Below are positions 5,599-55,901 of a stretch of 64,000 nt of DNA, piece after piece. The notes under the pieces were generated by a model, which was given only the letters and a program-made list of their open reading frames with translations, was not told the origin of the DNA and ran no database searches. The position numbers and the translations under genes are program-made. Numbering within the stretch: the first letter of the stretch is position 1; the number at the start of each line of letters is the position of its first letter. The stretch covers positions 14,418-78,417 of IMG/VR virus record IMGVR_UViG_3300016484_000735; one strand, given 5' to 3'. This stretch comes from a virus.

Positions 5599-5934
5599 AT
5601 GGGATTCCGTACCGTCGTCGTTCTGAACAATGACTACGCTCACGAGTGGGAGAACGACCCCGAGCTCGGCAAGAAGATCTTCCTGGCTGCCTCGGCTGCT
5701 CAGTTCGGCCGCGACGAGAGTCAGGCCCGTCGGATCCTGCCGTACGGCCAGGCCATCGAGCAGGTCCATGCGGACTGCCAGACCGTGGCGATCCTGGACG
5801 GGTACGGCGGGAAGGCCGTCGCGTACAGCCACGGCCGTCGTGCGCAGACCGACGAGGAACGAGACCTGGCCTGCCTGAAGGCCCTCGCCGAGAAGCTCGG
5901 GTACCGTGTTTCGAAGAAGCCGGTGAAGGGCTGA
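5599..5934 (+). CDS. Early hypothetical protein (MGFRTVVVL...)
   Basis: GGAG RBS in conserved leader; start moved to 5599. Confidence 0.75.
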   Translation: MGFRTVVVLNNDYAHEWENDPELGKKIFLAASAAQFGRDESQARRILPYGQAIEQVHADCQTVAILDGYGGKAVAYSHGRRAQTDEERDLACLKALAEKLGYRVSKKPVKG

Positions 5935-6036
5935 TCGTTACAACTTCGGAGTGTACAAGTTCTGCGAGCAGGATATAGTATACGAGTTCCACCACGACGA
6001 TGGCCTGAAGGTCCTTCGCATCACCCTGGTTCAGCA

Positions 6037-6336
6037 ATGAAAAACGACTTCCTCGGAAATTCCCTCGAGATCGGCGACCTGGTCGTGGTCCCGGCCCCGC
6101 AGTACCACCACCTCACGATCGCTCGTGTGTACGCGTTCACTCCGAAGGGAGCCCGAGTCGAGTTCCTGAACACCTGGAACTTCGATCCGAAGGATCCGCG
6201 GTACACCCAGTACCTCGCCGCCCCGTCGTACCTCACGAAGATCACGACTCCCACGGAAGCCTCGATCGCCGCGGCCGCCGCTCTGGACGCCGCTCGGGTC
6301 AAGAAGAACCTCCCGCCGATCAGCGAACTCTCGTAA
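6037..6336 (+). CDS. Early hypothetical protein (phage D.LG..L.IGD.V SH3-like motif)
   Basis: MKNDFLGNSLEIGDLVV; stop TAA in GTAAC arm. Confidence 0.7.
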   Translation: MKNDFLGNSLEIGDLVVVPAPQYHHLTIARVYAFTPKGARVEFLNTWNFDPKDPRYTQYLAAPSYLTKITTPTEASIAAAAALDAARVKKNLPPISELS

Positions 6337-6426
6337 CAAGTTCTTCGGACGTTACAATTCTCCGATGTACAAGTTCTGAAGGCGTGTTATAGTACACCTA
6401 TCGACACACGAACTGGAATCACGAAC

Positions 6427-6789
6427 ATGGAACAGATCCGCATCGCCCCCGTCGCCAAGGGTTACTTCGCCTCGATGAAGGTCACCCTGGCCGACATCGC
6501 CCGGAAGCGTCGTGCCGGTATCGCCGTGTTCGCTGAGCGTCACAATCCGGACGGCAGCATCACTCAGGTGTTCCTGATTCCGGAAGGCACCTCGATCAAG
6601 ACCAAGGAAGGCGAGTTCCTGGAGGCCGTGAACCTGAAGACGAAGCGCCCGTACGGCCAGCACCAGGTCCTGGCGAAGCTGAAGTTCTCGATGAAGCGAG
6701 GTTTCCTGGAGATCGACGGGATCGCCCCGGCGACCGCCGCGTACGCCGATGCTCTGGACCTGGAAGCCGTCGCGTTCGAAGTCGCTTGA
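6427..6789 (+). CDS. Early hypothetical protein
   Basis: Cassette promoter and leader upstream. Confidence 0.75.
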   Translation: MEQIRIAPVAKGYFASMKVTLADIARKRRAGIAVFAERHNPDGSITQVFLIPEGTSIKTKEGEFLEAVNLKTKRPYGQHQVLAKLKFSMKRGFLEIDGIAPATAAYADALDLEAVAFEVA

Positions 6790-6819
6790 AGAACAGAGAT
6801 CCTCTGAAGGAGTTACGCA

Positions 6820-7008
6820 ATGAAACACTCTGAGCACGAGTTCAAGGTCGATGACGTCGGTGCCCGCGGTCGCGTCACCGGTGACGAGTGGCTCGCTCTG
6901 TCCGCCGTGTTCGAGACGCTGTTCAGCGAAAGCCAGGCGAGCCAGAAGCCGGCTCTTGATCCTCTGACGATCGAGGTCCTTCAAGAGGACGACGGCGAGA
7001 TCGACTGA
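6820..7008 (+). CDS. Early hypothetical protein
   Basis: AAGGAG RBS. Confidence 0.6.
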   Translation: MKHSEHEFKVDDVGARGRVTGDEWLALSAVFETLFSESQASQKPALDPLTIEVLQEDDGEID

Positions 7009-7154
7009 GACGGAACACCAGTCCCAGGCAGTCCGCTCCCTGGCGGCGAACAGGGCGGCCGGTCGTTACAAGTTCTAGGCGTTACAACTTCGGGGTGTAC
7101 ATTCCACGTCGGCAGGTTATTATTCACCTATCGACAACGAACCGGAACATCGAA

Positions 7155-7439
7155 ATGTCCTTCAAGACCTGGTACAAGAAGCAAGTCACGACCTCGACGA
7201 AGTTCCGGAACACCGTGCTGGTCGTGGCAGCTCCCGTGGTGTACGGTGCCGCGATCGTCGCCTGTGTCTGGCACTGCCTGAAGGACATCGGATCGACGAT
7301 CGTCGACTCGGTCGTTCAGACGAAGAACACCGTGAGCGATGTGAACGCGTACTACCGCGCCGTGTTCTCCACGAAGGCCGGTGAGGAATACACCCCGCCG
7401 GCTGCGAACACCGTTCGTCCCGTTCGTTACGAGGACTGA
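7155..7439 (+). CDS. Early membrane-anchored hypothetical protein (MSFKTWY...)
   Basis: Conserved leader; one hydrophobic segment. Confidence 0.7.
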   Translation: MSFKTWYKKQVTTSTKFRNTVLVVAAPVVYGAAIVACVWHCLKDIGSTIVDSVVQTKNTVSDVNAYYRAVFSTKAGEEYTPPAANTVRPVRYED

Positions 7440-7493: not shown

Positions 7494-7691
7494 ATGAACA
7501 CGAACACGACCTTCACCACCACGTTCCTGACCCGCCACGATGGCATCGGCACGATTCACCAAGGTGTGATTCGCCGCCTGGAACACGGTGAGAACATCGT
7601 GTACGCCGTGATCGAATCGATCGACGAACGCAAGATGAAGCGTGTCGTCGCCAAGGAACTGAAGATCCTGAAAGCCAAGGAACAAGCATGA
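7494..7691 (+). CDS. Early hypothetical protein, probably leaderless (MNTNTT...)
   Basis: TATAGT 7481-7486, ATG 7 nt later. Confidence 0.7.
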   Translation: MNTNTTFTTTFLTRHDGIGTIHQGVIRRLEHGENIVYAVIESIDERKMKRVVAKELKILKAKEQA

Positions 7692-8071
7692 AGCCCCTGA
7701 AATTCTACTCCGGTGCCGATCTGCCCACCGCGAACCCTCGTGACTTCGACACCGTGTACGTGTACCGTCAAGGCATCGTTGAGTTCACCGGCACTCGGGA
7801 CGAGCACGAGCAGTTCGTGAGTGCGAACCCGGGCTCGAAGGACTGGGTCACCGAGTACGTTCGCGACGAGGATGCCCTGAAGGCAGCTCGTCAGAAGTAC
7901 ACGAAGGATCGTGCGACCCGGGCGGCCCAGTTCCTGAACGACCTCTCTCAAGAGAACGGCCTGCCGGTTTCGAAGATCTCGAAGATCCTGGAGCTGGCCG
8001 CGAATCTTGATCTGGACCCAGAACAGAAGGTCGAACTCGTCGAAGGGTTCGCGAAGATCTTCCGGAGCTGA
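7688..8071 (+). CDS. Early hypothetical protein
   Basis: ATGA overlap with upstream stop. Confidence 0.7.
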   Translation: MKPLKFYSGADLPTANPRDFDTVYVYRQGIVEFTGTRDEHEQFVSANPGSKDWVTEYVRDEDALKAARQKYTKDRATRAAQFLNDLSQENGLPVSKISKILELAANLDLDPEQKVELVEGFAKIFRS

Positions 8072-8073
8072 AC

Positions 8074-8244
8074 ATGAACGTGATCTTCCTGACCGAAGAC
8101 CGGATGCCGGAGACGATCTGGGTCGCCGCACCGGAAGTCGGTGATGTCCTGTCGATTCCGAACGATGGCGACGACGAACTGCAGTCGTACGTGATCGATT
8201 CGGTGAACCTCCCTCTGAACACCGTGTACGTGAGGAACCTCTGA
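8074..8244 (+). CDS. Small hypothetical protein, 56 aa, missing from ORF track (MNVIFLTEDRMPETIWVAAPEVGDVL...)
   Basis: Fills the gap exactly; TGA overlaps ATG of the next gene; phage-like codon use. Confidence 0.65.
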   Translation: MNVIFLTEDRMPETIWVAAPEVGDVLSIPNDGDDELQSYVIDSVNLPLNTVYVRNL

Positions 8245-13703: not shown

Positions 13704-14813
13704 TCACTTCTTCCAATGTGCGCCTCGCGGCGAGGACGAGATTGGTCGCTCCCACGGTTCGTGCTGAGGCACGATCGTCGGTGCAGTAGCACACGCCGCC
13801 TCTGCTGCACTCGGTCCGTTCAAGTGAATCGCACTCCCGGTCGCCAACAGGTTCCCACTCGCCAAGAAGTTCATCGCCGCACCTGAAGTGATGTTCACTC
13901 CGGCACCCGTCACTCCCAACGATCCACAAGCAGTCAGTCGAGCGTCACCACCAGCCAGCAGGTTCAGAGTCGTCCCAGCGCTGATGTTCACCGATCCGCT
14001 CGCCGCCAGGTTCAGATTCCCACCAGCAGCGATCGACACGGACTCAGCAGCGAACAGGTGCACGTGCCCGTCCTTGTCGATCTCGAGGTACGCCTGCCCA
14101 CCAGCCACTGACAAGTAGATCCGTTCGTTCGCATCGTCGAAGATGATCTGATGACCCTCTGCCGTCTTGAACCGCAACCGACTGTTCGCTGGGTTATCCT
14201 GCATCAGGATCGCGTGCCGACCAGGAGTCGTGATGCAGAACGTCTGTGACTCCAACTCGCCAACACCCTTCGTCCCTACCGGCACAGTCCGCGTCTGATA
14301 CCCCTCAGTACTGTTCTTCTCATCCGCGGGTTGTGCTGCCTGTCGTTCGTACGCACCACGCGTCTGAGCGATCGACGAACTCAGATCACCGAACTGTGCC
14401 TTCAGGTTCGAAGCAGCAGGTTCCAGAACCCCACCAGAATCAGTCGTCAGATTCCCAGCACCATCGTTCCGACCCACCGGCAACGACCGGTTCCCGTGCT
14501 CTCGGAACACCGACCCGATGTACACCCGCTGGTTGTAGTCACCGTACAGGAACATCACCAGCACCTGCGCACCGATCTTCGGAATCGCCCAGAACCCGTA
14601 CGACACCGGTCCATCAGACACTCCACCGCCACCACCCGGATAACTGTACGCCTGCCCAGCGAACGGCGACATGTACACCGCCCACGGCAACGTCTCAACA
14701 TCAGAGATCACATCACCATCGATCGCCGGACACCACACGCGCAGACGACCCATCTCCTGTGGATCGCTCGTATCGACCACGATCCCTTCAACAACGAACG
14801 GCGCATCAATCAT
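13704..14813 (-). CDS. gp5: Baseplate central spike, gp5/VgrG-like (OB-fold plus beta-helix, no lysozyme)
   Basis: GIVVDTSDPQEMGRLRVWCP, P.IG..V.V.F..GD, TAEGHQIIFDD repeats. Confidence 0.8.
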   Translation of the reverse strand: MIDAPFVVEGIVVDTSDPQEMGRLRVWCPAIDGDVISDVETLPWAVYMSPFAGQAYSYPGGGGGVSDGPVSYGFWAIPKIGAQVLVMFLYGDYNQRVYIGSVFREHGNRSLPVGRNDGAGNLTTDSGGVLEPAASNLKAQFGDLSSSIAQTRGAYERQAAQPADEKNSTEGYQTRTVPVGTKGVGELESQTFCITTPGRHAILMQDNPANSRLRFKTAEGHQIIFDDANERIYLSVAGGQAYLEIDKDGHVHLFAAESVSIAAGGNLNLAASGSVNISAGTTLNLLAGGDARLTACGSLGVTGAGVNITSGAAMNFLASGNLLATGSAIHLNGPSAAEAACATAPTIVPQHEPWERPISSSPRGAHWKK

Positions 14814-18815: not shown

Positions 18816-19490
18816 TTACTCCTTAGTGGAGCCGAGAGCAGCTTCGACCTTCTTGAAGATCAGGTCCGCGAGCTTCTGATCGACGCCGAGGATCTTCGCG
18901 AACGCGACCTTGTACCCGAGCTTCACGGCGAGACGAGCCATCGAGCCTGAGATCAGGTGCAGCGGGATCTCTTCGCCCTTTTCGGCGAGCTCCAGAACTT
19001 CTTCTGACGGTGTCCCTTCGTCGTCTGGATCCTCACGGTCCTTCAGACCCGGCACGATCACGTGCTCGAGCTTCTTGCCATCAGGCCCGGTGAAGTACTT
19101 GTCGAGCATCTCGAGGTACTTCGAAGCACGATCAGAACCAGCGGCGATCGCGTACGGCTCGTACCCGGCCTTTCGGACATCCTCGAACGCAGCGAACGCT
19201 GATCCCGAGATGATGAACTGGATCCCGTTCGCCTTCTTCGAGGCTTGCATGAACTTCACGCGCTCTTCGCCGGTCAACGGGTTCTTCGACTTGTCCTTCG
19301 ACGTCTCCTTGCCGGCTACGACCACGACGACCGGCACGACGCCCTTGTTCTCGCGAGCGAACTTCTTCAGCAGATCAATGACCTTGTAGTGCCCGGCAGT
19401 CGGCGGGTTCATGCGACCTACCATCACGACGGCGCGCTTCGACTGCATCCCGACGGTCTCTTCAAAGAGATCGACAGTGAATTCTTCCAT
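18816..19490 (-). CDS. Cytidylyltransferase-like (HxGH nucleotidyltransferase)
   Basis: GRMNPPTAGHY, NPL..EER..F, AGSDR, SGS.AR motifs; late promoter at 19518-19523. Confidence 0.75.
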   Translation of the reverse strand: MEEFTVDLFEETVGMQSKRAVVMVGRMNPPTAGHYKVIDLLKKFARENKGVVPVVVVVAGKETSKDKSKNPLTGEERVKFMQASKKANGIQFIISGSAFAAFEDVRKAGYEPYAIAAGSDRASKYLEMLDKYFTGPDGKKLEHVIVPGLKDREDPDDEGTPSEEVLELAEKGEEIPLHLISGSMARLAVKLGYKVAFAKILGVDQKLADLIFKKVEAALGSTKE

Positions 19491-21346: not shown

Positions 21347-22054
21347 CTAGTCTAGGTACTTGATTGTCCAACCTTCGACGCGCGAGATACGCTTCTTCGA
21401 TGTGACCACGCCGTTCTCGGTCTTCAGAGCAGCTCTGAATGCCGTGAGCGGGTACTTCGACTCTGCACACCACGCAGTGAGGTCATCAACGATGAAGACC
21501 TTCCCGGACGATGAGGTTACCTCGTACTTTCGATTCTTCGCTGCCCAGGTCTTTGCCATACTTTCCGGTGAGCGGGTACGGTCTTTCTTTGACCAAGTAG
21601 AGCGCCATTTCTGATGTCGTTCTTCGCTCCACTTCTTACCAAAGTTCGGATTGTTCTCACCGCTGTTCAACTCACTCAACAATGCCTTTGTCTCATCAGA
21701 CATCGACCACCCGTCATCACCACCATGACGAGCATTCATCAGAATACCTCCTTCTGGAAGAATACCAAAGTGCTTCGTCAGAATGCGTTCGGTCGCGAAC
21801 GCTGTCACTTCATCGCCTTCATAGACAGTGATCACCGGGAGAGTCCTGTATCCAAGGCTCTTCATCCCAAGCAACCAGCGATCGATGATCTGACCTGAGT
21901 AAGACGAGAGCTCATCATTCAAGAATGATACAATGCCTAGTGGGCGTTCAGGACGCCCCTTCCCAACGTAAGCCGGTTGATGGTCGAATACTCCGAATGG
22001 ATGCTCGAACTTGCCTGGTTTCCGTGGATCAAGTACAACGTATGTGATGAACAT
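21347..22054 (-). mobile_element. Free-standing GIY-YIG (LEM-3-like) homing endonuclease with NUMOD3 repeats
   Basis: YVVLDPRKPG...YVGKGRPER; SDETKALLSELNSGENNPNFGKKWSEE; antisense insertion between gp47 and gp46; TAAATA at 22076-22081 (-). Confidence 0.75.
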
Positions 22055-52448: not shown

Positions 52449-52483
52449 CGCATAAGTATAGAATGTTCAAGAAGAGCCTATCG

Positions 52484-53053
52484 ATGATCACGTTCAAGCA
52501 GTTCCTCGCAGAGTCCGAGCGTAAGATCTACGCAAAGAAGCTTGGCGATGTTGGCGCATTCACACCGGCGAAGGCTGAGGACAGTTACACGGTCGGTAAT
52601 GTCACGTTCAGTGCGAAGGACGGTCTCGGCTCAGTGCCGCACAATCAAGAGGTGTGGTACATGGGGTTCGTCGCCACGATGAAACCAAGCATGTTCTTGA
52701 AGATCGCGCTCGACGATGAAGGCTCACAAGTACCGACGTCGAAGGAGCTCGCGAAGCTCGTTCAAGACGGGTACGCCGTTGGGATTCCGTTCCTCGAGAT
52801 CGAGTTCGATCCGGATGGGAACGACCTCCCGAAGATCAAGGGTCACGAGGGTCGTGGTCGGATGCGCATGGTGCAGGATCTGAATGGTGATGAACCGATT
52901 CCAGTGCACTTCTTCCTGCGCGGTGGTCTGCGAGCTCGGAACGTCACTCGTGAGATGATCGACGAGGTGAAGCAAGGTGTGTACGCCGAGAAGTCATCTC
53001 GATTGGTGAAGAACCCTGTTGAACGGATCTGGCTCGACTACAGCGAGATGTAA
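52484..53053 (+). CDS. Hypothetical protein with capsid-targeting-like N-terminus; possible ParB/Srx fold
   Basis: MITFKQFLAE; IPFL...IKGHEGRGRM. Confidence 0.65.
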   Translation: MITFKQFLAESERKIYAKKLGDVGAFTPAKAEDSYTVGNVTFSAKDGLGSVPHNQEVWYMGFVATMKPSMFLKIALDDEGSQVPTSKELAKLVQDGYAVGIPFLEIEFDPDGNDLPKIKGHEGRGRMRMVQDLNGDEPIPVHFFLRGGLRARNVTREMIDEVKQGVYAEKSSRLVKNPVERIWLDYSEM

Positions 53054-53108
53054 ACAAAAACGGGAGCCATTGGCTCCCGTGATTTTATCTAGCACCTAAT
53101 GCTGTATT
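53053..53108 (-). terminator. Conserved 3' element copy C plus terminator
   Basis: Reverse complement AATACAGCATTAGGTGCTAGATAAAATC (53108-53081), acgggagcc-aat-ggctcccgt, T tract. Confidence 0.75.
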
Positions 53109-53122
53109 TGCGTTGAGTGGTG

Positions 53123-53665
53123 TTAAGACCTGATGAACTCGCAGCACGTGCGGTACAACACATCACGTGCGGCTGTCGGTTCGAATGGACGATCTTGTTC
53201 GTCACGCGTCATGATCAGGTGGTTCGTGCCGTACTTCTTGTATTCTTCGATACCGGCGTTGAACTGGTCCACCGTGATCTTGATGCGATCGTCTACGAAC
53301 TCAGCACGAATCGGCGGGCGAGTGACGAACACTTCCATCACATTGAACCGGCGCTTGAACTCTGCGTAGTACTGACGCGAGAGCGCGGTGTCTTCGCCAC
53401 GCAGGATCTTGTCGTATACGAGGTTCGAGACGATGAACCTATCGAGCAGGTACGTCTTGCTCTTGTCGAGTAGGTCGAACATCGTGAACAGGATCTCGAA
53501 GTCCTTCTCTGTGTTCATGCGAAGCAGGGCACCCGACGGCATCGTTTTCGGGAACTTCACCTCGACCGCATGCGGCCACATGTCACGGGCAACGTCAGCG
53601 AGCAGTGTGCTCTTGCCGCAGTTGTCCATGCCGTCGAACACGATGAACTTAGTTTGATTTGACAC
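53123..53665 (-). CDS. dNMP kinase (thymidylate kinase-like P-loop)
   Basis: GTG start 53665; FIVFDGMDNCGKSTL, LLDRF..S..VY. Confidence 0.8.
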   Translation of the reverse strand: MSNQTKFIVFDGMDNCGKSTLLADVARDMWPHAVEVKFPKTMPSGALLRMNTEKDFEILFTMFDLLDKSKTYLLDRFIVSNLVYDKILRGEDTALSRQYYAEFKRRFNVMEVFVTRPPIRAEFVDDRIKITVDQFNAGIEEYKKYGTNHLIMTRDEQDRPFEPTAARDVLYRTCCEFIRS

Positions 53666-54698
53666 GGCAGAAAACCTTGTTGTAGAAAGCGTCAGTCTCG
53701 CCTTCCGCGAAACGGAAGCGTCCGATCTCCACTTCATTATAACTCAGCGAGTTCAACCGGGCGCCGATCTCGCTTAGGTGCACGATCGTGTTCGGATTCC
53801 GGATCAGATCAGCATTGTACGTGACCACTGGGCAACCGTAGTGAAAGAACTCGATCGTGCCAGGATGCAGGACCGTGTCGATGTCATCGAGCATCACGAC
53901 CACCGGACGCTTCGCGAGAAGCTCGTAGTACTCAGACTTCGTCGGCTTCATCTTCCCGATGTACGCCCGCTCATGCTTCATCGAATCGTTCGGGTCAGTG
54001 GTCTCGATCGTCCAGCCGCGACCCGACAAGTTCAGCTCGTCGAACACGTCGATGAACTGATCGAACTTGTACGCCTTGTCGCTGATGCGGAACGGCCAGA
54101 AGATCTTCTGACGCTCAGCTTCGGTCTTGTGCGGTGGGTCGATCTTCGGCAGCATCGAGGCATGCACGCACTTCGTGTTCACGAAGACCTTGTCGACCAG
54201 GTCAGGACGAACCTCGAGAATGTACTCGCGCTGACGAGGGTTCAGCACTGTCGTGAACGCGCCGCGTTCGATCGAATTGAGATCGCTCTCAAAGAACCGG
54301 TCGATGTACGGGCGATCGAGCTCGGGAAGCTTCGTGATGTTGAAGTTGTTCGCGAACGGCTTCTCTCCGTTGTACCCAGTGATGTCGGTGATCACGAAGT
54401 CAGACAGACGATCAAGCGCCCAGATCATATCGGCGTTCAGCTCCCAGAAACGCTCTCGCGTCTCCACAGCATTCAGGCCGTACTCGAGGCACACGAACGA
54501 AACTCGTGTATGGTCTTTGAACCGCTCGAGAACTTCGTCGAAGTCGGCGGCACCGACCGGCACAGCCACGACCACCTGATCGAAGTTGGATGCCAATACT
54601 CGCGCCATCGTGAGCTGGAAGTTCCCATCCTTCAGGATCGAGTACTTCCCAGTCTCGTGGCTCCGCATGCTGAAGATGGGAATCCAGAGAACCCTCAC
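53649..54698 (-). CDS. GT-B glycosyltransferase, putative DNA-modifying
   Basis: GTG start overlapping upstream TGA (MRVLWIPIFS); IFWPFRISDKAYKF, EYYELL, PGTIEFFHYGCPVV resemble GT-B C-domain motifs. Confidence 0.65.
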   Translation of the reverse strand: MRVLWIPIFSMRSHETGKYSILKDGNFQLTMARVLASNFDQVVVAVPVGAADFDEVLERFKDHTRVSFVCLEYGLNAVETRERFWELNADMIWALDRLSDFVITDITGYNGEKPFANNFNITKLPELDRPYIDRFFESDLNSIERGAFTTVLNPRQREYILEVRPDLVDKVFVNTKCVHASMLPKIDPPHKTEAERQKIFWPFRISDKAYKFDQFIDVFDELNLSGRGWTIETTDPNDSMKHERAYIGKMKPTKSEYYELLAKRPVVVMLDDIDTVLHPGTIEFFHYGCPVVTYNADLIRNPNTIVHLSEIGARLNSLSYNEVEIGRFRFAEGETDAFYNKVFCRVKSN

Positions 54699-55396
54699 GA
54701 CAGGAAGCCTCGCACGTAGTTGAAGTCGCGCTCGAACACGTGGCCGTTGATCAGGTGGCAGTGGTACTCGCAGTCCTTGACGTCGATGCCGAGCTGACCA
54801 GCGACCATGTGCAGCAGACGCATCTGCAGGTAGAAGTCGAGCTGCATCACGACCGCGATGTTCTGCGAGCGCATCACCGTGCTCAGGATGAGCTTCCCGT
54901 TCCGACGGGTCAGGTGGTACGCGATCGTGCACGGGAACTCGAGCGTCTCGTCCTTGTCGAGGAGCTGCAGATCGTCCTCGTTCAGGATCATCAGCGAGCA
55001 CCGACGCGAGTTCGGGTGATCAATGAGTTCTTGCAGGATTGCCGGGAGCTGCTTCGCGATCCGTGGACCGTAGAACGTGTTGAAGTTCGCCGGCAGCGCA
55101 TCGCTCTTAGGCTTTGAGACGAATTGCGCGACTTGCGGGTACTTCTCGAAGGCAGCTTGGGCGTCGGTGCCACCGCTGATCATGAAGTCCCAGAACGTTG
55201 CTGCGTACTCGTAGCTGATGCGGTTGATGCGCGGGTCGGTGAGTACGAAGTCGCGAGTGTCAGCGACACGGAACGTGACATCGATCAGCTCGTTCGCTTT
55301 GCCGATCCGGGTGTCTTCGACGTATTCAGGGGTGTCGAGTGCCGCACGGCACAGACCCTTGAAAGCATCGGTCATTGTTGCGAAGTGCAGTTCCAA
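54695..55396 (-). CDS. Thymidylate-synthase / dCMP-hydroxymethylase homologue, dCMP-type
   Basis: TTG start after AAGGAG; YGPRI, NSRR, FPC (catalytic Cys), MRSQN..., Asp at the TS N177 position. Confidence 0.85.
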   Translation of the reverse strand: MELHFATMTDAFKGLCRAALDTPEYVEDTRIGKANELIDVTFRVADTRDFVLTDPRINRISYEYAATFWDFMISGGTDAQAAFEKYPQVAQFVSKPKSDALPANFNTFYGPRIAKQLPAILQELIDHPNSRRCSLMILNEDDLQLLDKDETLEFPCTIAYHLTRRNGKLILSTVMRSQNIAVVMQLDFYLQMRLLHMVAGQLGIDVKDCEYHCHLINGHVFERDFNYVRGFLS

Positions 55397-55406
55397 GTAG
55401 TTCTCC

Positions 55407-55901
55407 TTATTGGTGTTTGCCGAGGCGGTGTGCGAGATCAAGGTACGCTTCAGCTTGATCAGGCGTGAGGCGCGGTCCGACGTTCTGGAAGACAGCGATT
55501 TTCGGATGCAGACCGCAGTACTTCATTGCATCCTCGAGGTACGAGGTGTTGTGGGTCTTCTGCTGTCCCATGCTGATCAGCACCGTCGTCGGGATGTCGA
55601 TCTTGGGCACCATTCTATCGCCCTTGAGCTCGAACGCGAACCCGAACACGAATGTGGTCTGAAGGAACTCGACCATCTTCGCCGGCGGCATCTCCCACCA
55701 CAGCGGGTACACGAGGCACATCGCATCGGTTTCTAGGACGAGTTGACGAAGATCGACATCCTCGATGTCTTCGTCGTACAGGTTCAACCACGTAACCTGG
55801 TGCTCTGCTTCGTTCGCACCCTTGCGGTACTGCTGCGCGAGCTGCCCAGTGAACGACTTCTCGGAGGTGTCCGGATGCGCGATGATCTGAAGGATTTTCA
55901 T
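55407..55901 (-). CDS. Flavodoxin-like-fold NAD(P)H oxidoreductase (Flavodoxin_2 / KefF-MdaB type)
   Basis: MKILQIIAHP...SFT, V..LNLY, D...LVYPLWW.MPP......F...GFAF; TACAAT -10 at 55928-55933 (-). Confidence 0.85.
   Translation of the reverse strand: MKILQIIAHPDTSEKSFTGQLAQQYRKGANEAEHQVTWLNLYDEDIEDVDLRQLVLETDAMCLVYPLWWEMPPAKMVEFLQTTFVFGFAFELKGDRMVPKIDIPTTVLISMGQQKTHNTSYLEDAMKYCGLHPKIAVFQNVGPRLTPDQAEAYLDLAHRLGKHQ

Follow-up and report, generated by a model that had tools for sequence, protein, structure and literature searches.

In a 64,000-nucleotide (nt) stretch of viral DNA from the IMG/VR record IMGVR_UViG_3300016484_000735 (positions 14,418 to 78,417 of that record, hereafter the window), the minus-strand gene at 54695-55396 very probably encodes a flavin- and O2-dependent deoxycytidine monophosphate (dCMP) 5-hydroxylase, i.e., a 5-hydroxy-dCMP synthase of the AfhB/RB69 gp48 family built on a thymidylate synthase (TS) fold. 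This reading draws on sequence comparison, a structural model, and the analogy of characterized relatives. The chemistry of the enzyme is already known from work published in 2025-2026 on RB69-like phages; what is new is the setting in an uncultured jumbo phage and the reductase-like gene next to it. An earlier note on this DNA, made from the sequence alone, had described a TS homologue that keeps the catalytic Cys and a cytosine-specifying Asp but loses residues of the folate chemistry, and had proposed that it activates dCMP at C5 without transferring a methylene group from methylenetetrahydrofolate (CH2-THF). The proposal is supported by tested relatives, which make 5-hydroxy-dCMP from dCMP, and by analogy with them it can be refined, flavin- and O2-dependent hydroxylation being the supported candidate for the replacement chemistry.

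RB69 gp48 and DLP3 gp80 convert dCMP to 5-hydroxy-dCMP with oxygen derived from 18O2, and flavin mononucleotide (FMN) co-purifies with them (Lee et al., NAR 2026, PMC13326640). In the same study, nine further homologues with Asn in place of Asp169 (E. coli ThyA numbering) all made 5-hydroxydeoxycytidine (5hodC) in vivo, the tested relatives, compared directly with T4 gp42, made 5hodC and not 5-hydroxymethyldeoxycytidine (5hmdC), and the Asp169-to-Asn change was proposed as a predictive signature of 5hodC synthesis (PMC13326640). The hydroxylase binds flavin loosely; on the flavin-containing crystal structure, Lee et al. refer to He et al. (Nat Chem Biol 2026), and they treat the evolution of the cofactor switch as an open question (PMC13326640).

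Gene model, homologues, and predicted structure

The open reading frame (ORF) of the TS homologue is real and intact, running from a TTG start at 55396 to a stop at 54697-54695 and coding for 233 amino acids (aa). It matches Pfam PF00303 (Thymidylat_synt) with 33.7 bits (cut-off, 24.3) and PHROG family phrog_160 at 3e-30, and it contains MRSQNIAVVMQLD, FPC, and AATFWDFMISG, that is, every string quoted in the earlier note. A Shine-Dalgarno sequence, AAGGAG, was read directly at 55403-55408 on the minus strand, 6 nt 5' of the TTG. We preferred this start over the ATG at 55375 because the majority of homologues are also 233 aa long and residues 2-7 form a confidently predicted strand in the AlphaFold2 (AF2) model. 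The 226-aa database call that starts at ATG 55375 was rejected in favor of the 233-aa model, and the 248-aa maximal ORF was rejected as too long.

A tblastn search of 50,697 phage genomes returned 410 records with a homologue of the hydroxylase. The best matches (56-58% identity, full length) came from Mosigvirus and other Straboviridae, the Mosigvirus proteins being 56.7% identical to the window protein over 99% of its length, and the Straboviridae homologues occupy the genome position that T4 gives to gene 42. Identity was 57-60% to RB69 gp48, 57-58% to AfhB of phage HY126 (PDB 9IQC), and 57-79% to many relatives. No near-identical DNA was found when the operon was compared by megablast with the phage collection. 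Within the PDB, phmmer retrieved 9IQC, 9IR2, and 9IQU at an E value of 1e-84, followed by MilA at 1e-6 and by thymidylate synthases at 1e-4 or weaker. Relatives of the hydroxylase are widely labeled "thymidylate synthase" or "dCMP hydroxymethylase," an annotation that is corrected here.

The AF2 model (predicted local distance difference test [pLDDT], 90.3) was set against known structures. The first match was 9IQC, titled "Monooxygenase dependent on riboflavin with dCMP and FAD" (flavin adenine dinucleotide), with a template modeling (TM) score of 0.93 in Foldseek and a Z score of 31.9 in VIA-align; the two superposed with a root mean square deviation of 1.6 Å over 231 aligned residues. The entry 9IQU, titled "phage HY126 dCMP hydroxylase-AfhB," gave a Z score of 30.3. 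Values were lower for MilA (23.7), for thymidylate synthases (ca. 21), and for E. coli ThyA (ca. 20.7), of which residues 1-221 of 264 were paired by VIA-align with model residues 9-233.

A quick maximum-likelihood tree (IQ-TREE) separated the family from an outgroup of T4 gp42 and ThyA with 100% support in the Shimodaira-Hasegawa-like approximate likelihood ratio test (SH-aLRT), placing RB69 gp48 inside the family. The window protein fell within a clade of 53-55 uncultured sequences (98-99% SH-aLRT), with the cultured Straboviridae enzymes outside it; the rooting within the family is unsure, given the very long branches of the outgroup.

Active-site residues and family pattern

Residues were mapped in a MAFFT alignment of the hydroxylase with E. 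coli ThyA, T4 gp42, RB69 gp48, and nine relatives, and the family pattern was taken from a 100-sequence alignment. The catalytic Cys is kept as Cys156 (codon 54929-54931; all codons are on the minus strand), the equivalent of ThyA C146. Arg176-Ser177 (Arg176, 54869-54871) correspond to R166-S167, and nine residues past this pair Asp187 (54836-54838) takes the place of N177. Glu153 (54938-54940) stands at L143, while Tyr109 (55070-55072), Arg131-Arg132, and His219 (54740-54742) are the counterparts of Y94, R126-R127, and H207. The Asp of the RSxD motif, D169 in ThyA, is replaced by Asn179 (54860-54862), which stands in RSQN; the T4 gp42 equivalent is MRSND, with the Asp kept. The Cys, the Asn at D169, the Asp at N177, and the Glu at L143 each occur in 100 of the 100 family sequences. 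The nucleophile, the cytosine-specifying Asp after RS-x9, and the substitution in RSxD had all been read correctly in the earlier note, and on the family alignment it is the Asn at D169 that is the diagnostic change, not the loss of Glu58 discussed below.

Beyond these positions, Phe221 occupies the site of ThyA Tyr209 and is common to RB69 gp48. In a low-confidence region of the MAFFT alignment, the column of ThyA I79-W80 reads Ala-Gln in the window protein and Lys in 88 of 100 family members, with Ile-Trp present in both T4 gp42 (Trp82) and ThyA. The last residue of the chain corresponds to ThyA residue 221, and the ThyA segment 222-264, 43 residues that close over the folate, is absent.

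The family-wide Asn bears on the possibility that the gene encodes a folate-dependent dCMP hydroxymethylase like T4 gp42, making 5-hydroxymethyl-dCMP for glycosylation. Such an enzyme would share the fold, the Cys, the Asp at N177, and the acidic residue at L143; an adjoining glycosyltransferase is found here as in T4, and several phage records label relatives "dCMP hydroxymethylase." We nevertheless consider this very unlikely. Asp169, kept by T4 gp42, is Asn in every family member, and, according to the title of PDB 1BJG, the D221(169)N mutant of TS fails to promote opening of the imidazolidine ring of the cofactor, the classical explanation for the loss of methylene transfer with this change. 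Moreover, identity to T4 gp42 is just 24%, the family hidden Markov model (HMM) covers T4 gp42 and ThyA in the C-terminal half only, and the relatives assayed beside T4 gp42 yielded 5hodC rather than 5hmdC.

A different substrate or group, be it cytidine monophosphate (CMP, as for MilA), deoxyuridine monophosphate, or another flavin-installed C5 group, is likewise given very little probability. MilA is the second-best structural match, and the ThyA Tyr209 that contacts the sugar 3'-OH is Phe221 here. However, the same Phe is found in RB69 gp48, a dCMP user, the cytosine-specifying Asp187 is invariant, the enzyme of 9IQC and 9IQU, which is 58% identical, is seen there in complex with dCMP, and the gene context is a DNA-modification triad.

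The losses themselves (Asp169, any Glu at E58, and the ThyA C terminus) might also be taken as signs of a decayed gene, the product being an inactive or regulatory TS-fold protein. That idea is hardly credible with an intact frame, a strong Shine-Dalgarno sequence, identities to many relatives that make constraint evident, and activity in members of the same residue pattern. The window protein has the family residue at 49 of 49 invariant positions and at 88 of 89 positions conserved at ≥90%, the sole deviation being N16C, and by this measure it is an intact, constrained enzyme.

The Glu58 position

The earlier note had also reported that the catalytic Glu of ThyA (E58) is missing. In a register anchored on the E-x-x-W motif (MAFFT, and phmmer against MilA), which reads HELLW in ThyA, RELEW in T4 gp42, AEALW in MilA, and AEDFW in RB69 gp48, Glu58 falls on Ala66 of the window protein (codon 55199-55201). 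A global hhalign alignment (-glob), with the G-x-T motif as anchor, instead places it on the invariant Phe68. We regard the global register as unreliable in the N-terminal half because it disrupts N-x-x-Y-G, a motif that the window protein has in common with T4 gp42, and the E-x-x-W register as the better supported of the two from the sequences. The claim holds for the window protein, which has no acidic residue at E58 under either register. It does not hold for the family. In the E-x-x-W-anchored column, Glu was found in 61 of the 100 members, followed by Ser (22), Asp (7), Ala (5), Gln (3), Lys (1), and Asn (1), and both RB69 gp48 and the crystallized AfhB have Glu. Because these two keep the residue in the better-supported register, its loss is, as far as the alignments go, a peculiarity of the window protein and a minority of relatives and not a family signature. 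A natural Ala where the solved enzyme has Glu helps to separate essential from relic residues.

The ambiguity lies in a region of strong divergence. The family HMM aligns ThyA, T4 gp42, and the RsoM2USA homologue (see below) only over the C-terminal catalytic half (residues ca. 113-232), and neither local nor glocal HMM alignment gave a usable match between the family and ThyA or T4 gp42 over the N-terminal half, which appears to have diverged beyond recognition from these two proteins.

Proposed mechanism

The following steps are modeled on TS chemistry and on the characterized relatives, and those downstream of the hydroxylase on homology and synteny. dCMP would be held through its phosphate and sugar by conserved residues (Arg30, Arg131-Arg132, Arg176-Ser177, and His219), with Asp187 reading the N3/N4 face of the cytosine. 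Cys156 would add to C6 and make C5 nucleophilic, and C5 would then attack a flavin C4a-hydroperoxide in the former cofactor site and not a folate-derived iminium ion. In this enzyme the Asp that otherwise activates CH2-THF has given way to Asn179, Lys or Gln appears to stand at the Trp80 position, and the 43 C-terminal residues of ThyA are gone. 5-Hydroxy-dCMP would be released once the C5 proton is lost and the cysteine eliminated. The co-transcribed kinase, together with host kinases, would raise this product to the triphosphate, the phage polymerase would build the 5-hydroxydeoxycytidine triphosphate into DNA, and the co-transcribed GT-B enzyme would glycosylate the 5-hydroxyl, giving restriction-resistant DNA. 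On the basis of strict synteny, the protein encoded upstream would most likely regenerate reduced flavin from NAD(P)H, which would make the pair a phage-encoded two-component monooxygenase.

The Flavodoxin_2 neighbor

The gene directly upstream (55407-55901, minus strand) encodes a 164-aa protein resembling NAD(P)H oxidoreductases of the Flavodoxin_2 family (PF02525, 70.6 bits; cut-off, 27). Its TAA stop (55409-55407) overlaps the AAGGAG of the hydroxylase gene, suggesting translational coupling of the two. By sequence, its PDB matches are NAD(P)H quinone/FMN oxidoreductases, and an AF2 model (pLDDT, 95.5) retrieved FMN-dependent quinone reductases and azoreductases as top Foldseek hits (TM score, ca. 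0.8). Two motifs, the N-terminal AHP..SFT and the central P.WW.MPPA, are invariant across 41 sequences of the protein.

Wherever the IMG/VR loci extend to that side (six of six), this gene lies next to the hydroxylase gene, as it does at five additional metagenomic loci. One of the loci, on a 383-kb contig, has a 107-aa ORF without Pfam match (7668-7991, plus strand) between the two genes. In the hydroxylase tree, all 19 rows with a known Flavodoxin_2 neighbor fall within the clade of the window protein, and the trait can be explained by one change. The close homologues of the Flavodoxin_2 protein are all metagenomic (43 of 43), at least 18 of them with a longest contig of the same size as that of hydroxylase matches, and tblastn of the protein against the 50,697 phage records gave no match.

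The simplest reading is that the Flavodoxin_2 protein is probably a dedicated NAD(P)H:flavin reductase of the hydroxylase, because the latter binds flavin loosely and needs reduced flavin to react with O2. A candidate reductase of this kind would explain the source of reduced flavin and offer a compact two-gene cassette for the 5-hydroxydeoxycytidine nucleotide. Alternatively, it could be an unrelated linked redox gene, such as one for a quinone or azo reductase or for stress protection, with flavin supplied by host reductases as must be the case in RB69; we hold this to be a real, if lesser, possibility. RB69 and Escherichia phage 55 lack any PF02525 gene, and yet RB69 gp48 works in E. coli; the reductases classically found in two-component monooxygenases are of other families; and the 107-aa ORF separates the two genes at one locus. 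Against this, the genes are adjacent and on the same strand in 11 of 11 jumbo-clade loci that cover the region, the stop overlaps the Shine-Dalgarno sequence in the window, and the single change that the neighbor trait needs in the tree, the wholly metagenomic homologues with their matching contig sizes, and the lack of any counterpart among the phage genomes all speak for a specific tie to the hydroxylase.

Going one step further, the phages of this clade may have a host-independent two-component flavin monooxygenase with a minimal, 164-aa, NQO/AzoR-like reductase, and the sugar finally attached may not be arabinose, since the reductase gene replaces the arabinose-activation genes that flank the T4-like hydroxylases. 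We put this forward tentatively, at close to even chances but short of them. If true, the known glycosyl-5-hydroxycytosine bases would gain a new member.

Operon, source contig, and related loci

The hydroxylase gene is the second of four minus-strand genes (Flavodoxin_2, hydroxylase, glycosyltransferase, and kinase) that sit between a divergent tail-tube gene and convergent genes toward the tail sheath. The third gene (53649-54668, minus strand) encodes a 339-aa GT-B-like glycosyltransferase (phrog_3891, 4.8e-70) orthologous to RB69 gp46:47 and DLP3 gp79, with 38-40% identity to RB69 gp46/47 and Phage55_072. It was found in 354 phage records with a taxonomic spread resembling that of the hydroxylase, and its Atlas features point to glycosyltransferase clusters. 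RB69 gp46:47 and DLP3 gp79 are predicted to transfer the first sugar (arabinosyl) onto 5-hydroxycytosine (PMC13326640). The window protein has ca. 55 extra C-terminal residues relative to the T4-like orthologues, matches spanning residues 1-281 of 339, and this extension is kept in the related jumbo-phage loci.

The fourth gene (53123-53665, minus strand) encodes a 181-aa thymidylate-kinase-like nucleotide kinase, an orthologue of RB69 gp45 (30% identity; phrog_761, 3.5e-16) with weak matches to Pfam PF02223 and TIGR00041. Its longest ORF begins at 53737; the likely start is GTG 53665, overlapping the end of the glycosyltransferase gene, because orthologues are 180-183 aa long with a 17-nt overlap onto the glycosyltransferase gene. 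A consensus scan detected a bidirectional intrinsic-terminator-like hairpin at 53060-53080 (both strands; perfect 9-bp stem with seven GC pairs and T runs on each side), which closes both the four-gene operon and a convergent gene for a 196-aa protein (52463-53053).

The window comes from a 135-kb IMG/VR contig that is 43% complete according to CheckV. Its tail sheath is closest to those of the jumbo phages RsoM2USA (56%), XacN1, Xoo-sp13, Stenotrophomonas phages CM1 and RAS14, and PA5oct, and this comparison marks the contig as part of an uncultured jumbo myovirus, with RsoM2USA and XacN1 as its closest cultured relatives. No hydroxylase homologue was found in XacN1, and in RsoM2USA there is just a distant one with Asp169 and Glu58 kept (MG752970.1, ca. 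7766-8107, minus strand), a TS homologue with RSQD, Asp at the N177 position, and KREFLW. By these residues it is probably a folate-type, cytosine-specific enzyme, and that phage would make 5-hydroxymethyl- or 5-methyl-dCMP and not 5-hydroxy-dCMP.

The four-gene cassette recurs, with its gene order and its place among the structural genes unchanged, in related IMG/VR loci and five other metagenomic loci. The hydroxylases of these jumbo-clade loci are 61-78% identical to that of the window, on contigs that include ones of 383, 168, and 87 kb. A 201-kb contig in the collection encodes the same protein as the window. The order hydroxylase-glycosyltransferase-kinase is common to the window, RB69, phage 55, and all metagenomic loci that reach far enough downstream, and the module has spread past the Straboviridae and Pootjesviridae into RsoM2USA/XacN1-like jumbo phages. 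On a related jumbo-phage contig (L019 and L020), a 534-aa gene with a DUF7487 domain and a faint Mom match (5825-7429, plus strand) lies directly 5' of the Flavodoxin_2 gene, with a second DUF7487 gene nearby; it may represent a further DNA-modification function tied to the cassette.

At the T4-like loci (RB69, L022, L023, and L024), by contrast, no Flavodoxin_2 gene is present, and directly 5' of the hydroxylase gene are homologues of RB69 gp55, an arabinose-5-phosphate isomerase, and of gp52:53 and gp51, AfhE- and AfhF-type arabinose-activation genes. Two of these loci are the only relatives of the hydroxylase among GTDB species-representative genomes, where they lie on contigs of metagenome-assembled genomes (MAGs), 120-167 kb long: L023 (CAVJPU010000002.1) and L024 (JASFZA010000007.1, labeled as a Candidatus Izemoplasma sp. 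MAG). Both carry the complete T4-like cluster for arabinosyl-5-hydroxycytosine (gp55, gp52:53, and gp51 homologues, hydroxylase, glycosyltransferase, and kinase) and are probably phage contigs binned into MAGs; they gave no clue to the host of the jumbo clade.

The RB69 gp49-gp55 proteins, used as tblastn queries, had no match on the 135-kb, 43%-complete contig, and none was found for PF00534 (GT1) or PF03819 (MazG) on the contig or for PF01380 (SIS), which was sought on a small related contig only. PHROG and Pfam scans of 30 other ORFs of the window returned mainly baseplate and virion proteins or nothing, and none linked to the pathway. Among the baseplate and virion genes, a 224-aa cytidylyltransferase-like protein (18816-19490, minus strand; PF01467, 4e-6; phrog_3041) may be a nucleotidyltransferase, judging from these matches. 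A 235-aa ORF at 21347-22054 (minus strand) matches NUMOD3 (2e-10), a motif typical of homing endonucleases.

Several of these results weigh against the assignment as a flavin-dependent dCMP 5-hydroxylase with its own reductase and DNA glycosylation pathway. The window protein is only 57-58% identical to the tested enzymes, and it has Ala66 where crystallized AfhB and RB69 gp48 carry Glu, so its activity could differ if that Glu matters; this concern is offset by the 39 of 100 members with Ser, Asp, Ala, Gln, Lys, or Asn at the position. The flavin species differs by source, being FMN in the NAR paper and FAD and riboflavin in the PDB titles. The evidence for the reductase role is synteny and fold, and RB69 does without such a gene. 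Lastly, no dCTPase, second glycosyltransferase, or nucleoside diphosphate-sugar pathway was found on the 43%-complete contig, although with more than half of the genome missing such absences prove nothing.

Comparison with known systems

The closest known systems are RB69 gp48, DLP3 gp80, and AfhB (9IQC, 9IQU, and 9IR2), with which the window protein shares the TS fold, the Cys, the Asn at D169, the Asp at N177, and the Glu at L143, as well as the conserved family-specific loop KPKSDxLPANFNTFYGPR, a C terminus at the equivalent of ThyA 221, and orthologues of the first glycosyltransferase and the kinase downstream. It differs from them by Ala66 in place of Glu at the E-x-x-W position and by grouping apart from them, with good support, in a clade of sequences from uncultured jumbo phages. 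The loci differ too. In the window, a Flavodoxin_2 gene is found 5' of the hydroxylase and the whole lies between tail-tube and tail-sheath genes, whereas RB69-type loci have genes for arabinose-5-phosphate isomerase, AfhE, and AfhF in that place and are located beside the DNA polymerase gene.

With T4 gp42 the common features are the fold, the Cys nucleophile, the cytosine-specifying Asp, the acidic L143 position, and the N-x-x-Y-G motif, and in both cases the product would serve as a handle for DNA glycosylation. However, gp42 keeps Asp169, Glu60, and Ile-Trp82, is 24% identical with an N-terminal half that the HMM could not align, and uses CH2-THF to install a hydroxymethyl group, whereas flavin and O2 are predicted here to install a hydroxyl. 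The core of E. coli ThyA (residues 1-221) superposes (Z score, ca. 20.7) with Arg166-Ser167, Cys146, Tyr94, His207, and Arg126-Arg127 conserved; unlike it, the window protein has N177D, D169N, L143E, and, in the less certain N-terminal alignment, apparently Lys/Gln for W80 and Ala for E58, and lacks the 43 C-terminal residues that close over the folate. That a TS scaffold can be turned from one-carbon transfer with folate to hydroxylation with flavin has become known only recently. The CMP 5-hydroxymethylase MilA (5JNH and 5B6D), second in structural similarity with a Z score of 23.7, is also a TS homologue specific for a cytosine nucleotide, but it is longer (316-318 aa), folate-dependent, and ca. 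22% identical, and its substrate is a ribonucleotide.

For the putative reductase-hydroxylase pair, the nearest parallel is with two-component flavin monooxygenases that have a flavodoxin-fold NAD(P)H:FMN reductase, such as SsuE/SsuD. In both, the gene for a small flavodoxin-fold NAD(P)H oxidoreductase is co-transcribed with that of a monooxygenase that binds flavin loosely. The window oxygenase, however, has a TS fold and not a TIM-barrel or acyl-CoA-dehydrogenase fold, and its presumed partner belongs to Flavodoxin_2 (NQO/AzoR-like) and not to FMN_red or Flavin_Reduct, the coupling of the two being deduced here from their genes and folds.

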